From IMG/VR virus record IMGVR_UViG_3300025597_000001: a stretch of DNA of 58,446 bases; one strand, 5' to 3'. Shown piece by piece: positions 2,662-55,805 of this stretch. The stretch is from a virus. A program made the translations under genes and the position numbers. The stretch's first letter is position 1. Each line of letters starts with the position of its first letter. The notes beneath the pieces are model-generated. The model made no database searches. It saw nothing but the letters and a program-made list of their open reading frames with translations, and was not told the origin of the DNA.

Positions 2662-3030
2662 TTATTGTTTTTCGTTCTCCATTTGTTCTAATTTCTTGCG
2701 TAATTCTTCTATTTCTTGTTCTTTTTCTTTCTTGGCCTTTTCTTTTATTTTTTCTTTCTCCTTGTCGAGAAATTTTTTGACATCGTTATATATTTTTTCG
2801 AGTGTTTCTGCCGTGTAGTTAAGAGGCATCTCTATTGTATTTTTGTATTCGGCTATTTCAACTTTCTCAAATCCCATTGAGTATTCTCTGTCTTTTGTAA
2901 AATATAAACTAATTTCGTCGTAAATACTATTACCATATTGCATAATAACATGCCGTTCAATAGGAGTTCTGCCAACAAAATCTGCGTATTCGTCGGCCAG
3001 CTTTTTCAGTTTTTTGATTTGTTCTTCCAT
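2662..3030 (-). CDS. Hypothetical protein with K/E-rich coiled-coil C-terminus
   Basis: 122-aa ORF in the co-oriented early cluster. The overlapping plus-strand ORF 2453..2818 is low-complexity shadow. Confidence 0.6.
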   Translation of the reverse strand: MEEQIKKLKKLADEYADFVGRTPIERHVIMQYGNSIYDEISLYFTKDREYSMGFEKVEIAEYKNTIEMPLNYTAETLEKIYNDVKKFLDKEKEKIKEKAKKEKEQEIEELRKKLEQMENEKQ

Positions 3031-3182
3031 TGCTTTAAATTTTAGTTTAGTTTGCCTACTCTATCATGGCTTTTCGGACTCCGCCATTTTTCCGTAAAGA
3101 TACGAATAGTTTGATAAACAACAAACCAAAAGTTACTTATTTACATGTATTTAACTAAATAGATTTGTTTTTTACGTTTGTT

Positions 3183-3446
3183 TTATTCGTCACTGTCAAT
3201 CATATAGCACTTTGTTGCCGTACCTCTTTGTTTTCTTGTGTCTATCATTTTGTTTGAATCAATAAGCACCATTGCGCTTGCTATTATTTCGGGGTTCTCG
3301 TAGGTTCTTGCAACCCTTAACTTTAATCCTAAAAAGTCCTCCACTTGTTTTTTGGTCAACTTTTCGGAGTAAATTCTCGGATCGTCTGCCATCAGATTAA
3401 TAACTGATCCAAAATATTTTTCAATTTGCCAAAACATTGTTCCCAT
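3183..3446 (-). CDS. Hypothetical protein
   Basis: 87-aa ORF, tightly spaced with 3464..4006. Confidence 0.55.
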   Translation of the reverse strand: MGTMFWQIEKYFGSVINLMADDPRIYSEKLTKKQVEDFLGLKLRVARTYENPEIIASAMVLIDSNKMIDTRKQRGTATKCYMIDSDE

Positions 3447-3463: not shown

Positions 3464-4006
3464 TTATTCGTAAATATACATTCCTAAATCAACTATATGT
3501 CCACAAATGTCGGTTGTCGTTACATTCAATTCTTCAACTTTAGTTCCGATAATAAGGCGGTTACTGCCTTTTGCGAGTTTTCCGGTGTACATTGAAATAT
3601 CAGCTCCAGCACCAAGTGCATACATTTCTTTGAGAGTAAGTTCAGCCTCCCGGTAAATTTTAACATCCGATTTCTTAACGCTTTTCCATTCAATAAACAG
3701 AAAAGTATCCGGCACGAAAGTCCTATTCATAATTCCCAAATTATAAAGAACCTCTTCACGTGTGGCAACGTTACCGTTCAGTTGGTCTCCGAATTTAGTG
3801 GCATTGTTTTCGTGCCATGAAAAACGAACGGTTATTATTTTTCCGTTATTGTTATTCGTGTAGGTAACATACACGCTTTCGGTGGTTTTACTTTCATTTA
3901 CGGTTGTAACGATAAAAGGAAATTCGGAAAAATCGAATAAATCATAAGATACGTGATAATTTCCGTTACCTATTGGATTGTCCTGTCTGTCAGATTTTGC
4001 TTTCAT
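3464..4006 (-). CDS. Hypothetical protein
   Basis: 180-aa ORF with no recognisable motif. Confidence 0.6.
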   Translation of the reverse strand: MKAKSDRQDNPIGNGNYHVSYDLFDFSEFPFIVTTVNESKTTESVYVTYTNNNNGKIITVRFSWHENNATKFGDQLNGNVATREEVLYNLGIMNRTFVPDTFLFIEWKSVKKSDVKIYREAELTLKEMYALGAGADISMYTGKLAKGSNRLIIGTKVEELNVTTTDICGHIVDLGMYIYE

Positions 4007-4120
4007 TGTTATTTCATTTAGTTTTAATTATTGTTTTCTGCCGTTGTTTTTTCTGTTTGTTTTCTGCCTCCACAAGGCCATATTTTCTGCGTTCATGTTT
4101 TCTGCTTTGCAAATGAATAT

Positions 4121-4145
4121 GGGAGAGTGCAAAATACACCCTCCC
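4121..4145 (-). terminator. GC-rich hairpin just downstream of ORF 4155..4463
   Basis: gggagagtg-caaaata-caccctccc, a 9-bp stem with one mismatch. On the minus strand it follows the stop codon and is followed by a weak T-tract. Confidence 0.4.
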
Positions 4146-4154
4146 GATTGATTG

Positions 4155-4463
4155 TTATTTGTTTATACCTTCAAAATATCGAAGGAGCGTCGTAAATCTT
4201 TCGATGTATTGGTTTTTTATGTAATCGTTCAATATTACTCCGCTTCTTTCGTTTTCGATCACCGTGCCCGAAAAATCGATATTTAACATCTTACATGCAA
4301 CCTCCGTAAAATGTTCGAGCTTCTTGTCGAGGTAATTTATATCAATGTTTCGATATCCTCCGTTTTTCAACCCATCGATAATTTTGTTTATAGGATCAAT
4401 AAGCGTTACGTCGATAATAAATTTATTCACGACGTCGTTTTCTATGTTTAGTGTTGCTTTCAT
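4155..4463 (-). CDS. Hypothetical protein
   Basis: 102-aa ORF. Confidence 0.6.
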   Translation of the reverse strand: MKATLNIENDVVNKFIIDVTLIDPINKIIDGLKNGGYRNIDINYLDKKLEHFTEVACKMLNIDFSGTVIENERSGVILNDYIKNQYIERFTTLLRYFEGINK

Positions 4464-4486
4464 TTTATCTGTTTTTTGTTTTCTGT

Positions 4487-4684
4487 TTAGATTATTTCAA
4501 ATCTGAATCTATTCTTTTTCTTAACAACCCGAAACCTATCCATTCTGCCCTTGCTATTAGTCAAAGAATACACGCCGTCCTCACCTTCATGCAGTTCAAT
4601 ACTTGTCGAATAAAAGTAATCATTCACCATCTTTGTTATTCTCTCCAGAGTAGGAGCACTTGCCAACAATGTTACTGTTTTCAT
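4487..4684 (-). CDS. Hypothetical protein
   Basis: 65-aa ORF. The antisense plus-strand ORF 4451..4699 looks like shadow. Confidence 0.5.
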   Translation of the reverse strand: MKTVTLLASAPTLERITKMVNDYFYSTSIELHEGEDGVYSLTNSKGRMDRFRVVKKKNRFRFEII

Positions 4685-4886: not shown

Positions 4887-5279
4887 TCAATCTTCTTCGA
4901 AGTATCCCCTTGCTTTCAAATATTCTTTTAACTCAAACGATTTAAAATCAATACTTTTGGCAATTATTTGCAATTCTTCGTCCGTGCAGTCCTCAATGTA
5001 TTTGCAATAATCGGTATCAAAATCTCCGTCAAAATCGAGCCTCCCGATTAATCCTTTCGGATCGTCGTCCGAAACAAAATTGCCTGCTCCGTCGTAAATT
5101 TTTATCTTAATGAATCGGCCACGTTCGTCCCGATCCCGATAAAAGATATTATCGGCATTCAACTTCTGTAAATCCCTGAAGTTTAACTCGCCCAGAAAAG
5201 TTTTATGCCCGGCATTGTAAAATCTGCCGCCGCGTCCAATATGAAAAGCAACAATGATTTGGTTTTCTTTTGTTTTCAT
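4887..5279 (-). CDS. Hypothetical protein
   Basis: 130-aa ORF. Confidence 0.6.
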   Translation of the reverse strand: MKTKENQIIVAFHIGRGGRFYNAGHKTFLGELNFRDLQKLNADNIFYRDRDERGRFIKIKIYDGAGNFVSDDDPKGLIGRLDFDGDFDTDYCKYIEDCTDEELQIIAKSIDFKSFELKEYLKARGYFEED

Positions 5280-5281
5280 TT

Positions 5282-5443
5282 TTACTTAATTTTTAAAGTG
5301 AATAATTCGCGCCTGCGTTGTCTTTTTTTGAGTACACGAGCCGCTGCTTCGCTTCTCTCGCCCAAATTCAGGCCTGCAATAGCCGCGAGCCTTTCGGCGC
5401 TGCTTTTTGCGCCGATTGAATCCAAATATTTTTCTACGTCCAT
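5282..5443 (-). CDS. Small basic hypothetical protein (53 aa)
   Basis: Hand-translated MDVEKYLDSIGAKSSAERLAAIAGLNLGERSEAAARVLKKRQRRRELFTLKIK. It ends 2 nt before the next start. Plus-strand ORF 5205..5570 is its antisense shadow. Confidence 0.45.
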   Translation of the reverse strand: MDVEKYLDSIGAKSSAERLAAIAGLNLGERSEAAARVLKKRQRRRELFTLKIK

Positions 5444-5461
5444 TTTAGTAAATTTTAATTG

Positions 5462-5644
5462 TTACCGACAATACTCCATATCCGTGCCGACGTCTTCGCC
5501 GAGCGTCGTATTTTCGCGTATAGTGCTATACACGTTCAGAATTTCGTACATTGTTTTTCGCGTTGTATAGTCGTATGTTTCGTTAAATTCAACATACTTG
5601 CCTCTATACTTTTTGTTTACTTGTTCTTTAGTTAGCGTTTTCAT
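5462..5644 (-). CDS. Hypothetical protein (60 aa, internal start chosen)
   Basis: The track ORF 5462..5791 begins with implausible hydrophobic junk. MKTLTKEQVNKKYRGKY starts at 5644, right after a CAGAAAACAA leader. Confidence 0.5.
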   Translation of the reverse strand: MKTLTKEQVNKKYRGKYVEFNETYDYTTRKTMYEILNVYSTIRENTTLGEDVGTDMEYCR

Positions 5645-8153: not shown

Positions 8154-8185
8154 TTTGTAAAACAACAAAATTATCATTAAATTTG
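8154..8185 (+). promoter_or_regulatory. Bacteroidota-type promoter upstream of 8220..10085
   Basis: TTTG at 8154-8157, then about 20 nt, then TAAATTTG at 8178-8185. This matches the -33 TTTG and -7 TAnnTTTG consensus. Confidence 0.5.
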
Positions 8186-13571: not shown

Positions 13572-14519
13572 TTAGAATAAATTTAATTGTGATATTAATG
13601 CTTTTAATCGTTTCTCTGCAATTTTGCAGTATTCCTCACTCATTTCGCTTCCTATGTATTTACGTCCAAGTCTTAATGCTGACTCTGCCGTAGTACCTGT
13701 TCCCATAAACGGGTCATAAATTATTCCCCCTTCTGGACATCCTGCTAAAATCGGTTTTGAAATTAAGCTTTCATTATAGGTGGCGTAGTGTTTTAATGAA
13801 CTTGGTCTTATTGGAATATCCCAAAAATCTGAAACAGAACCCGGATTTTTTCCATTTGGATTATTCCATTCTCTTGTTCCTCCTCCAATACCAAGTTCAC
13901 TACCATAAGATTCTGCTCTTTTATTTCTAACATTTGACTTAGTAACTGTTTTATCTCTTATGGCGTCTAAGTCAAAATAGTATTTCTCGTTTTTTACAAA
14001 GAAAAATACATATTCATGTTTCTTGCTAAATCTATCGGTAACAGATTCTGGCATTGCATTAATCTTAGCCCAAATAATGTCATTCCTTAAAATCCATCCT
14101 CTATCGATACATCCAATAGCAAACCGATGAGGAATAAGACATAATGATTTGTTTTTTATATTTTGCTGAATTTGCTTTCTAATATCACTATTATGAACGC
14201 TATCGTCTAAAAATGGATTGCGGTTTGATGTTGTATTCCCATTATACGTATCTCCCAAATTTATCCACACAGTACCTTCTTTTTTTAATTTTGGATAAAT
14301 AGCATCCATGAGAGACCAAAGATGCTCCAAATATTCTTGATATGTTGTCTCTAATCCCCATTGTCCTTCGTAGCCGTAATCTCTAAGTTGCCAATATGGA
14401 GGGCTTGTTATTACGCAGTCCAAGAAGTTGTTTGGCATCCTTGATACCGTATCCAAGCACGGCTCGCAATATATTTTATTTGTCTCAATGTTTTGCTGCA
14501 TCTGTTTATTTATTTTCAT
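13572..14519 (-). CDS. DNA methyltransferase (SPPY type, N4-C or N6-A, beta-class)
   Basis: 315 aa with VITSPPYW (motif IV) and IYDPFMGTGTTAESA (motif I) at the C-terminus. Confidence 0.8.
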   Translation of the reverse strand: MKINKQMQQNIETNKIYCEPCLDTVSRMPNNFLDCVITSPPYWQLRDYGYEGQWGLETTYQEYLEHLWSLMDAIYPKLKKEGTVWINLGDTYNGNTTSNRNPFLDDSVHNSDIRKQIQQNIKNKSLCLIPHRFAIGCIDRGWILRNDIIWAKINAMPESVTDRFSKKHEYVFFFVKNEKYYFDLDAIRDKTVTKSNVRNKRAESYGSELGIGGGTREWNNPNGKNPGSVSDFWDIPIRPSSLKHYATYNESLISKPILAGCPEGGIIYDPFMGTGTTAESALRLGRKYIGSEMSEEYCKIAEKRLKALISQLNLF

Positions 14520-14555
14520 TTGTTTTGATTATTGCTTATTCGTGAAATCATCTAC

Positions 14556-14648
14556 TTATGTTACTCTCGTAATGTGTGTAGTATGCAATGAGACCAACAA
14601 AATAGTCAAGACAACAAGAGACGCAGCAAGATTAATTAATTCTTTCAT
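14556..14648 (-). CDS. Possible 30-aa hydrophobic peptide
   Basis: Hand-translated MKELINLAASLVVLTILLVSLHTTHITRVT. It lies directly upstream of the methylase gene on the same strand. Very short and speculative. Confidence 0.2.
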   Translation of the reverse strand: MKELINLAASLVVLTILLVSLHTTHITRVT

Positions 14649-14759
14649 TTTGTTTTAATTTAATTTTTGTCAAAGATAATGGGTTCTATTTTATAAACCA
14701 AATTTTTAGTGTTAAATAATCTTAAAATGTTATTTTAATTATTTTAATGAACAGTATAG

Positions 14760-15050
14760 CGAGCCAAATACCCCGAATGTTATGGGGTTTCCAAACAAAG
14801 GATATTTTAAGAAAAACACCATTTTTGTTTGGCAGTGTGTTGAGCATTTGTCCTCCGAACCACATTTCGTGGTATAAGTGGTCAGTTCATTCCACTTAGT
14901 TTTAACTCGTCCGCTCTAAAACTCATTCGGTTGGTAGTTGCAGGCCGGCAGGGCTACCATTTACGCCTTAGATCGTCGTCTCTCACACACGTTTTTGCCG
15001 AATACACGGCCGTTTCAATTTATAGCTCCCTGAAACTGGTATAAAGAGGG
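14760..15050. ncRNA. Candidate structured RNA (unknown class) in an ORF-free, GC-enriched island
   Basis: No ORF of 60 aa or more on the gene-bearing strand. Nested helices: cccc/gggg 14771-14787; ccaaacaaa/tttgtttgg 14791-14832. A ccgaa/ttcgg stem (14855/14926) encloses three hairpins (14860-72, 14877-96, 14898-923). ggtag/ctacc lies at 14933-58. Confidence 0.35.
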
Positions 15051-15053
15051 TGT

Positions 15054-15105
15054 AAAAAAATAACAGCCGATTAGTTTATTCGGGGTTTAACTATAGTCGG
15101 CTGTT
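15054..15105 (-). terminator. Hairpin plus T7 tract on the minus strand
   Basis: aacagccga/tcggctgtt forms a 9-bp stem (15062-70 / 15097-105) with a large 26-nt loop. On the minus strand it is followed by attttttta (A-run 15054-15060 on plus). Confidence 0.4.
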
Positions 15106-15286
15106 AAGTATTCTCACGAATGAGAATTATATCTTTATGTTAAACCCCTAAAATATTAGCAAACTTAAAAACAAGTTTTAGTATTTCCAAATAAAATCAC
15201 AACTTTTTTCTCTATTTTGTGAAATTTAGAATAATTCTAAATAACAACCAAACATAACAATTTGTGTTATATGTACTTACATTAAA

Positions 15287-16258
15287 TTATGTTGAAGTAA
15301 TCAAATTCTTTCTCTTCTCTTTCGGATAATCAGATGTTCTTCTTCTTGAGATAGCATGACAGTCTGAACATTTTACATTTGAGAATTTAGACACATTCGT
15401 ATAAGTGAATGTTCCGGTATCAAATAAATTCGTAGAACCGCAATAAGGACAGGTTTCTTCTTTATTCTCTATGTACAAAGATAGGTTTGGATGATTCTTT
15501 ATCCACGGCCTAAGTTTTAAATAAACCTGTTCAAGGATTTCAACGTCCCTCATATTATACTCTTCCATATAGTTAAGCGATTCTTGGTCTCCATTAACAC
15601 ATCTATCCCACAGTTCAAAAGAAGTCTCTTTCTTATGTTCGATATTAAAATATCCAGCAAGGTCATCAAGTTTATTGGACGTAAATCCGAATTGCTTTCG
15701 TGCAACACATAATGTGTCAATTATTCTATAAGGCGATGGTGGAGTTAACCCATTGATAACAAACCGTGCGTTCATCTTTGGCACATCAAACTTCTGGGCA
15801 TTATGAGCGATGATTATGTTGCTTTGGTCAAATAAATTCCACAAAGACTTAACAATTCTGTTGTCATTCTCTTGAAGTGCTTCTTCAGGTGATAACACGT
15901 CGCTCATCATATAGTTGTTATTTAGCCACTTCGCACTCCACGATAAAACATACCAGTCAGATAAAAATTGATTTGAACCTATATCCTGTTTCCACTTTCC
16001 CCATACGTAGGCTTTCATTGGTGCAGTTTCAATATCAAAGATAAGTATTCGTGGTGTTTTGTCTGATGATAATAAAGTATCAAGATAGTGTACTTCTTGC
16101 TCTCTGAACTTTTCTAATTTTTTATACTCTTCGTCGCTGATTCTTAATCGATAGGTCTTATTAAATGTTCGTGGTTTGAAATCAGAAATGCTTTTACCTC
16201 TTATTGAGGCTATAAACTCCATCTCTTTTACCGAGATTGAACGTCTTTTGTTTGACAT
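15287..16258 (-). CDS. DnaQ/PolB-exo-like 3'-5' exonuclease with C-terminal zinc ribbon
   Basis: 323 aa with LIFDIETAP (Exo I), IIAHNAQKFDVP (Exo II), YNMRDVEIL (Exo III) and CPYCGS...CSDCH. Confidence 0.7.
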   Translation of the reverse strand: MSNKRRSISVKEMEFIASIRGKSISDFKPRTFNKTYRLRISDEEYKKLEKFREQEVHYLDTLLSSDKTPRILIFDIETAPMKAYVWGKWKQDIGSNQFLSDWYVLSWSAKWLNNNYMMSDVLSPEEALQENDNRIVKSLWNLFDQSNIIIAHNAQKFDVPKMNARFVINGLTPPSPYRIIDTLCVARKQFGFTSNKLDDLAGYFNIEHKKETSFELWDRCVNGDQESLNYMEEYNMRDVEILEQVYLKLRPWIKNHPNLSLYIENKEETCPYCGSTNLFDTGTFTYTNVSKFSNVKCSDCHAISRRRTSDYPKEKRKNLITST

Positions 16259-21787: not shown

Positions 21788-21819
21788 TTTGTTATATTAA
21801 AAAAAATACATTATATTTG
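21788..21819 (+). promoter_or_regulatory. Bacteroidota-type promoter of the structural (late) operon
   Basis: TTTG at 21788-21791, then 20 nt, then TATATTTG at 21812-21819. It lies in the divergent gap between terL and the scaffold gene. Confidence 0.5.
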
Positions 21820-44283: not shown

Positions 44284-44315
44284 TTTGGATTGTGTAAAAC
44301 CACGTATTATCTTTG
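44284..44315 (+). promoter_or_regulatory. Bacteroidota-type promoter of the rightward early/replication operon
   Basis: TTTG at 44284-44287, then 20 nt, then TATCTTTG at 44308-44315. Confidence 0.5.
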
Positions 44316-49965: not shown

Positions 49966-50241
49966 CATTAATTAACTACATAAAATTTGGATATTAATAA
50001 TTTTCCCATTACCTTTGACAAACAATTAAACCAATAAAAATTACGAACATGACAACAAAAGAAGAAATTAAACAAATAAATTTGATAAAATTGATAATTA
50101 AAAAATACAATTATGGAGACTAAAAAAGAATTTGAAGAACTTGAAAGAGCAATGATTAATGCACTAAACATGTGTTATACGCTGGCACGGTTGATTAAAC
50201 GATAAACTTGAATTGAAACACAAAACAAAATTTTTATTAAA

Positions 50242-55773: not shown

Positions 55774-55805
55774 TTTGGAAAGTAATAAAATAACATATAT
55801 CTTTG
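55774..55805 (+). promoter_or_regulatory. Bacteroidota-type promoter
   Basis: TTTG at 55774-55777, then 20 nt, then TATCTTTG at 55798-55805, about 20 nt before the ATG at 55825. Confidence 0.45.

Follow-up and report, generated by a model that had tools for sequence, protein, structure and literature searches.

A predicted leader RNA with a covarying terminator-loop pairing in an intergenic gap of a probable Bacteroidales phage

In the guanidine-IV (mepA) riboswitch and other "kissing" attenuators, termination is changed when an element further upstream base-pairs with the loop of the terminator hairpin. Among phages, pairing of the P4 CI RNA with the sites seqA and seqC leads to premature termination, and IsrK acts in trans on read-through transcripts from its own promoter (PMC4825925). 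P4 CI, c4 and IsrK control downstream replication or anti-repressor genes via termination or translation (PMC4825925). The subject of this study is a predicted leader RNA of ~100 nt, encoded on the minus strand of an intergenic gap (14520-15286) in IMG/VR virus record IMGVR_UViG_3300025597_000001; this stretch of 58,446 nucleotides, analyzed over its whole length, is hereafter called the window. Bacteroidota phages of the gut and of digesters are abundant, and their hosts do without Shine-Dalgarno-led initiation. To our knowledge, almost nothing is known about the timing of gene expression in these phages.

A first-pass annotation had singled out a helix-dense island at 14760-15150, rich in guanine plus cytosine (GC) and free of open reading frames (ORFs), as a candidate for a novel and possibly large, ornate structured RNA. 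The gap does hold a structured RNA, which is conserved, ~100 nt long and without an Rfam family. It is not the ornate RNA of ~390 nt that had been envisaged, and the supported part is not the GC-rich island itself; it is the adjoining AT-rich piece (31% GC).

Anatomy and homologs of the leader RNA

The right end of the gap (15054-15191, minus strand) is supported as a self-contained unit comprising a Bacteroidota-type promoter, a leader RNA of ~100 nt and an intrinsic terminator. The promoter (15160-15191, minus strand) was recognized by pattern match, with a -33 TTTG (15191-15188), a 20-nt spacer and a -7 box TAAGTTTG (15167-15160), and it aligns with the promoters of two related loci, L003 and L004 (related loci are designated by L numbers throughout). 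Transcription is predicted to start near 15153, which would give a transcript spanning 15054-15153 on the minus strand. Its 5'-terminal segment A, GGGGUUUAAC (15139-15148, minus strand), is the perfect 10-bp complement of 15082-15091. Since segment A begins 11 nt past the -7 box in the window and 8-12 nt past it in the relatives, it would form, or lie close to, the predicted 5' terminus of the RNA.

Folding of the minus strand gives a hairpin, P1 (AUUCUCA-UUCG-UGAGAAU, 15110-15127), followed by the putative intrinsic terminator T, which occupies 15054-15105. T comprises a 9-bp outer stem, AACAGCCGA/UCGGCUGUU (15097-15105 / 15062-15070, minus strand), an inner stem UAGUU/AACUA and a 12-nt apical loop, and is followed by an adenine and U7 at 15054-15061 (U7 itself at 15054-15060). 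The partner of segment A, termed A' (GUUAAACCCC, 15082-15091, minus strand), stands at the start of this loop and shares 3 nt with the inner stem; there is no such overlap in L003 or L004. A simple terminator consensus scan had missed T on account of its loop of more than 8 nt. The right-hand 112 nt, with z = -4.5 against shuffles, are the only part of the region that is clearly structured. No Rfam match was obtained for the leader in the window or, at E up to 1, in the relatives L004, L005, L120 and L198; the leader family is thus absent from Rfam. The plus strand of the leader carries no Bacteroidota-type promoter motif, either in full or as a -7 box.

The first two relatives, L003 and L004, align with the window minus strand from 15195 to 15040, directly after the exonuclease gene. 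The contigs of this lineage (IMGVR_UViG_3300034685_000034 and IMGVR_UViG_3300038673_000005) break off within the leader or shortly beyond it. All three loci share the layout TTTG-N19/20-TAnnTTTG, A, P1, UUUAAC, T with its U-run, and ACAC. In each of them the apical loop of T contains a complement to A, namely A', which fills most of its 12 nt, and the paired letters are wholly different: GGGGUUUAAC/GUUAAACCCC in the window (10 bp), GACACGGAUA/UAUCCGUGUC in L003 and GGCGAGG/CCUCGCC in L004. A covariance model, R1, was built from these three sequences with a structure containing P1 and the outer T stem only, and was therefore blind to the A:A' pairing. Among 91 sources, R1 matched L005 (E 5e-7) and L120 (E 2e-5). 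Another instance, L198, was reached through a homolog of protein X, the product of the gene behind the leader in L005 and L120; it was the only such homolog in 401 Bacteroidales genomes, and the same leader stands in front of it. All three instances found blind to A:A' are again complementary, with TTGTGGCGAGAATG/CATTCTCGCCACAA in L005 (perfect, 14 bp), TGATGGTACA/TGTACCATCA in L120 (perfect, 10 bp) and GUACGAGUU/AGCUCGUAC in L198 (written also as GTACGAGTT/AGCTCGTAC). An architecture scan over 1.15 Mb of loci gave 15 matches, against 3-5 in shuffled DNA, and added L017 (CGUGCCGG/CCGGCACG) and L040 (AGCGGGAAGCA/UGCUUCCCGCU). This brings the total to eight instances, the window and seven others, each with its own A/A' pair of 7-14 bp. 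A pattern scan of IMG/VR for the leader returned only known members and two matches without leader-like context.

The complementarity was compared with chance by shuffling the 5' segment in 20,000 trials and counting runs at least as long as the one observed. Such runs arose 22 times for the window, 387 times for L004, 10 times for L120 and 886 times for L198, and never for L003 or L005. In six instances, the A:A' duplex alone was calculated at -11 to -23 kcal/mol, and nested folds containing T or A:A' differed by 1.2 to 8.8 kcal/mol. The two local helices vary as well. A hairpin occupies the P1 position in five of the six relatives compared segment by segment (TCTCC/GGAGA, ATCACC/GGGGAT, CCTA/TAGG, CAGCC/GGCTA and CCTC/GAGG); in L017 there is only an AT-rich linker. 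The T stem is kept or compensated in relatives, as AACAGCCGC/GCGGUUGUU, AACAGCCGU/ACGGUUGUU, AAACGUCGG/CCGGCGUUU and AAAUCCCG/CGGGAUUU, the last of these belonging to L198, whose P1 is CCUC/GAGG. Thus, three helices, A:A', P1 and the outer stem of T, covary across the relatives.

These results sort the helices drawn in the first-pass annotation, all of which are present where they were placed. The search for covariation that it had proposed backed helices in the leader part only: the pairings aacagccga/tcggctgtt, ggggtttaac/gttaaacccc and attctca/tgagaat covary, and no other helix is backed by such changes. For the proposed multi-stem junction at 14855-14930 we obtained no support.

A separate arrangement was observed in L062, a contig of another relative (2925-3061, plus strand). 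Here a promoter TTTG-N19-TATCTTTG, behind which stands the GCATCGG also seen in L003 and L004, heads a segment of ~70 nt that ends in a strong terminator. This segment has no A:A' pairing and an R1 E value of 0.048, and may represent a different short leader or small RNA.

Cargo genes, the orphan copy and its surroundings

In the relatives, the U-run of the leader ends 3-23 nt ahead of the start codon of the first gene. In L005 and L120, it ends 8-9 nt before the ATG of an ORF of ~250-263 aa encoding protein X. The predicted fold of X consists of two winged-helix domains in tandem (pLDDT 86); its Foldseek matches, to RPC62-type proteins and to RepE54, an initiator that binds iterons, are weak. 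In a large protein collection only five relatives of X were present, and it carries no Pfam domain. Short repeats of the type AGAGA(T/A)A behind X in L005 resemble iterons by eye; there (4900-4990, 5385-5455 and 5532-5605) the repeats are succeeded by a tRNA-like fragment with a GGTTCGAATCC T-arm and then by an intact tRNA-Met (ARAGORN; Rfam 66 bits). In L198 (G339 contig 15; 2713-2773 and 1489-2304, minus strand), leader and X lie ~300 nt from what appears by eye to be the 3' end of a tRNA gene, which suggests that this module is part of an integrated phage or satellite-like element in a Bacteroidales genome. Elsewhere the leader heads a small ORF and a helicase/primase gene (L017) or an operon with a DnaD-like helicase loader (L040). 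Given these cargoes, the module stands at the head of replication-type genes in the relatives.

The window differs in this respect. A cargo start codon within ~25 nt of the U-run is found in L005, L120, L198, L017 and L040 and not in the window, where the first downstream ATG lies 199 nt past the -7 box and opens no gene. The UUUAUAC that follows the terminator is kept; the conserved UUUAUAC-AUG has become UUUAUACCAG (L005 has UUUAUACUAUG), and no ORF lies beyond it. For these reasons the module in the window is an orphan whose cargo gene is gone. A tblastn search of the window for X revealed no trace of it.

At the place of the cargo gene lies the GC-rich core (14791-15053), to which no strand is assigned. 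Its enrichment is as the first-pass annotation had described: GC amounts to 43.7%, which ranks among the highest 3% for windows of 263 nt, and reaches 47.7% in 14840-15015, against a mean of 35.1% for the whole window. The core is also free of ORFs in the sense proposed, with no Pfam, PHROGs or protein homolog and no 3-base periodicity. The eight frames of at least 25 aa in 14700-15230 had no match in Pfam or PHROGs, and the two longest core frames had no homolog among 5.8 billion proteins. The periodicity statistic is 2.6, against a shuffle mean of 6.1 and a median of 15.2 for coding pieces of the genome. The supposed density of helices fared less well. On the drawn (plus) strand, the fold of 14760-15050 is at chance (z = -0.3; 69/200 shuffles as good), and on the minus strand the signal is modest (z = -2.5; 4/200 shuffles as good). 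A weak hairpin, t2 (CCCC-AUAACAUUC-GGGG followed by UAUUU, 14771-14787, minus strand), is a possible end of read-through transcripts.

Searches for homologs of the core were negative throughout. tblastx against the regions downstream of the other leaders found nothing, nor did nucleotide comparison with isolated phages or Rfam with lax filters, and no second copy was present in the window or in 197 loci. Only short, weak blastn matches were obtained in 883 sampled Bacteroidota genomes, mostly to the AT-rich hairpin and to the stretch of A-run and terminator. When core sequences were scanned as exact patterns, IMG/VR, JGI metagenomes and GTDB genomes gave a single match, L070, which is dissimilar to the window. 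A mobile or MITE-like element was rejected on the lack of a second copy, as above, and on unconvincing terminal inverted repeats. That the region resembles no known RNA had been judged by eye, and the Rfam 15 scan of 14450-15350 agreed, with only chance-level matches (E of at least 0.67) and nothing credible from ARAGORN. A tRNA or transfer-messenger RNA was rejected, since ARAGORN at relaxed (80%) thresholds came back empty and neither the arms nor the loops of the 76-nt "cloverleaf" at 14855-14930 are of the right size. The alternatives offered at the outset, a decayed gene or a host-derived fragment, found no support either: the former was rejected on negative protein searches, tblastn with X, tblastx and codon periodicity, and for the latter the matches in the Bacteroidota genomes were short and weak. 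The core may still be old, scrambled DNA.

Comparison of close relatives indicates how the module can disappear. The exonuclease is 98% identical to that of the window in L001, 93% in L002, 82% in L003 and 81% in L004. In L001 and L002, both IMG/VR contigs, the flanks 14520-14733 and 15191-15290 are conserved at 90-100% nucleotide identity, and ~55-61 nt containing a strong hairpin take the place of ~460 nt in the window. The whole block of ~400 nt is absent and, since the flanks are shared, constitutes an indel. Near its ends lie two imperfect direct repeats, TTTCCAAACAAA (14788-14799) and TTTCCAAATAAA (15184-15195). Because the leader is found at this site in relatives further removed, the absence in L001 and L002 is, on grounds of parsimony, better read as a loss than as an insertion into the window phage.

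The gap separates two minus-strand genes, that of a DNA-polymerase exonuclease subunit on its right (15287-16258) and that of an N6/N4 methylase on its left (13572-14519). It is not wholly non-coding, as had been assumed, for its left part carries a conserved hydrophobic ORF of 30 aa (14556-14648, minus strand) with its own promoter, upstream of the methylase and outside the RNA element. L006 and L008 have homologs of this small ORF ahead of their methylase genes; the N-terminal ~19 aa are kept and the C-terminus is divergent. The second Bacteroidota-type promoter, TTTG-N20-TATCTTTG (14671-14702, minus strand), heads the small ORF and the methylase, with an ATG 22 nt downstream, and its flank is conserved in L002, L006 and L008. 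The gene order is exonuclease, leader, core, small ORF, methylase and KilA-N in the window and exonuclease, leader, X and KilA-N in L120. The neighborhood is highly mosaic: L006 and L007 lack the exonuclease gene between portal and methylase (L006 3015-3369). The methylase of L002 matches in two pieces, 2872-3315 and 4005-4535, with ~690 nt between them, which suggests that the gene has been disrupted or has received an inserted element such as an intron or a homing-endonuclease cassette.

The window as a whole is a ~58-kb tailed-phage genome whose genes include those for a portal, an intein-bearing terminase, a tape measure protein, DnaB, a primase and several methylases. The portals of Bacteroides LoVEphage and Dulem virus 40 share 45-55% identity with that of the window, which makes a host among the Bacteroidales probable. 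The Bacteroidota promoter pattern has eight matches in the window, seven of them with exactly N20 and all seven intergenic: 8154-8185, 21788-21819, 44284-44315, 49986-50017 and 55774-55805 on the plus strand, and the two in the gap, 14671-14702 and 15160-15191, on the minus strand. An ATG lies 19-41 nt downstream of six of the seven; the exception is the leader promoter (15160-15191), which no gene follows. These seven matches likely map the phage promoters used by the host polymerase. The leader architecture was sought at the six other N20 promoters of the window and was absent from them. The sole Rfam family above threshold in the window is the DUF805b RNA motif (RF02914) at 3053-3087 on the minus strand (44.7 bits, E 1.7e-9).

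A possible transcription gate and rival explanations

Taken together, the letters of an "address" that vary freely in front of replication genes point to a gate at the RNA level, possibly a determinant of immunity or incompatibility. We consider the leader to be a portable phage module that most likely serves as a transcription gate into the downstream gene, with a probability of about 0.6. Pairing of A with A' could occur in cis, as a pseudoknot or by loop invasion; alternatively, it could occur in trans, with accumulated terminated leader RNA binding nascent transcripts. Either form of pairing would alter whether the terminator hairpin forms or works, and would thereby set the amount of RNA polymerase that continues into the gene behind it. 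A 10-bp duplex inside a closed loop of 12 nt would be strained. Its formation should therefore either melt the upper part of the terminator stem and weaken termination, or lock the terminated RNA in a pseudoknot. In the window, the orphan copy would probably give a stable terminated RNA of ~100 nt, together with some transcripts that run on into the GC-rich, non-coding 263 nt beyond.

Several points weigh against this interpretation. The start, the termination and any switch are predictions from sequence. A' is located in the loop of the terminator and not in its stem, and its pairing could equally stabilize the RNA or the terminator. Nothing recognizable is left to regulate in the window, where the module may be a functionless relic, and its loss from the two closest relatives has done no obvious harm. 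The instances are few (n = 8), the pairs were counted by hand or with our own scripts, and the variable segments could not be aligned with MAFFT; moreover, L017 and L040 came from a search that demanded A:A' complementarity. Finally, the leader model leaves the GC-rich core unexplained.

The same pairing could belong mainly to a trans-acting specificity RNA, like the immunity RNAs P4 CI and P1/P7 c4, which would accumulate in its terminated ~100-nt form and whose loop A' would bind segment A in those leaders, still being transcribed, that carry a matching "address". The replication gene of its own phage or of a co-infecting relative would then be shut off or turned on, and the orphan would act as an exclusion or decoy RNA. 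A lineage-specific A/A' address on a conserved frame, as in heteroimmune P1/P7 and P4-like elements, speaks for such a role, and the T loop of the window also matches a third, downstream site, AUUCGGGGU (14770-14778), in the region of the 3' arm of t2. However, this 9-nt match is within chance (estimated at roughly 0.1) and no counterpart was found in L005 or L120; other targets of the loop in the window, at up to 3 mismatches, are likewise at chance level (7 matches against 6.6 expected). Rfam C4 (RF01695) gave no match, and pairing in cis explains the covariation equally well; we regard a mainly trans-acting RNA as unlikely. A further idea is that the orphan is an RNA-only device, either a trans-acting, address-specific exclusion or decoy RNA against related phages or a gate into the core as a new non-coding RNA in place of the replication-initiator cargo; this we consider a long shot. 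Another reading takes the core for a mimic of CRISPR RNA, whether as an RNA anti-CRISPR or as a naturally occurring RNA of single-guide type. On its minus strand the core reads GUUUUAGAGC-GGAC-GAGUUAAAAC-UAAGUGG, with a GUUUCA...UGAAAC palindrome at 15012-15036, and this 25-mer is a weak CRISPR-DR2 match (14.8 bits, E 6.4) that we judged to be chance. The first motif, like the minus-strand GAGUUUUAGAGCGGACGAGUUAAAACUAAGUGG (14898-14930), recalls the repeat/anti-repeat junction of a type II-A single guide, which we likewise judged to be chance. Both motifs are far below threshold, Rfam at E up to 10 returned no tracrRNA or other CRISPR-repeat match, no cas gene was seen among the large window ORFs scanned, the nearest characterized phages infect Bacteroidales, and repeat-like matches were absent from the 883 Bacteroidota genomes. 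A mimic of a Cas9 guide or CRISPR repeat, resting on one likeness and one 14.8-bit match, was therefore rejected as scarcely credible.

Two other explanations concern the origin of the core rather than the pairing. The core, alone or with the leader, could be a separate structured RNA of the minus strand, an RNA cargo reached by read-through of the terminator, which is the nearest surviving form of the original proposal. By every test the core is non-coding and its GC is in the top 3%; it lies between promoter plus leader and a hairpin with U-rich sequence, the minus-strand fold is better than all but 4 of 200 shuffles, and the first ~60 nt past the terminator are loosely alike, by eye, in L004, also without a start codon. 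Yet there is no homolog in any collection searched, and hence no covariation, and no Rfam match even with lax filters; the plus strand shows no fold signal and the minus strand a weak one, and the core is deleted in the closest relatives. As a general account of the region, an RNA cargo seems to us quite doubtful. Recombination junk is an improbable account as well, in which a methylase cassette with its own promoter replaced X and the core is functionless, being either what scrambling has left of the lost cargo gene or a piece captured from the host or another foreign source. The gene orders of L120 and the window fit such a replacement, and both the mosaic character of the region (the exonuclease gene missing in L006 and L007, the split methylase of L002) and the imperfect direct repeats TTTCCAAACAAA and TTTCCAAATAAA near the indel boundaries agree with it; however, no trace of X or any other protein, no residual codon periodicity and no match in the 883 sampled genomes was found, and above-mean GC is unexpected for decaying DNA of an AT-rich phage. 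For the core taken by itself, RNA cargo reached by read-through and debris from a methylase cassette replacing X appear about equally probable.

Returning to the transcription gate, the window supplies an orphaned copy of the module from an independent lineage, and the indel implies that the module can be lost in a step of ~400 nt. The locus also holds a lesson for annotation: a GC-rich, ORF-free island is by itself no evidence of a structured RNA, and the RNA that is supported here is its AT-rich neighbor.

Comparison with known leader and antisense RNAs

The closest parallels are P4 CI, P1/P7 c4 and Gifsy-1 IsrK, in which, as here, a leader-derived RNA has a loop complementary to a site in the same transcript and the complementarity varies among elements (PMC4825925). 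Unlike in these systems, the paired loop described here is the terminator's own loop, and the hosts are Bacteroidota rather than enterobacteria. The leader also stands apart from the C4 family (RF01695), whose covariance model matched neither 14450-15350 (E up to 10) nor L004, L005, L120 and L198 (E up to 1). Of the two-site feature of P4 (seqA and seqC), the upstream site is found in all instances; the downstream 9-mer, a candidate analog of seqC, occurs in the window only and is not conserved, with none comparable in L005 or L120.

A second group of parallels is found in plasmid replication control. According to work cited in PMC10724649, the countertranscript-driven attenuator of pT181 and the pseudoknot of IncIalpha, IncB and IncL-M plasmids have, like the present module, a structured leader of a rep gene in which pairing between a loop and a distal site decides expression and the loop sets specificity. 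Both pT181 and the Inc plasmids use a separate antisense RNA from the opposite strand; here, by contrast, the plus strand has no Bacteroidota-type promoter motif. The pseudoknot of the Inc plasmids acts on translation and not on a terminator.

Among attenuators in general, riboswitches with conserved ligand-binding nucleotides differ from the leader, in which the paired letters vary freely and which has no Rfam riboswitch match. With the classical terminator/antiterminator attenuator it shares an intrinsic terminator, as judged by its 9-bp outer stem, inner stem and U7. Unlike in the classical attenuator, A' lies in the loop, and the alternative pairing shares nothing of the terminator stem beyond 3 nt of the inner stem in the window.

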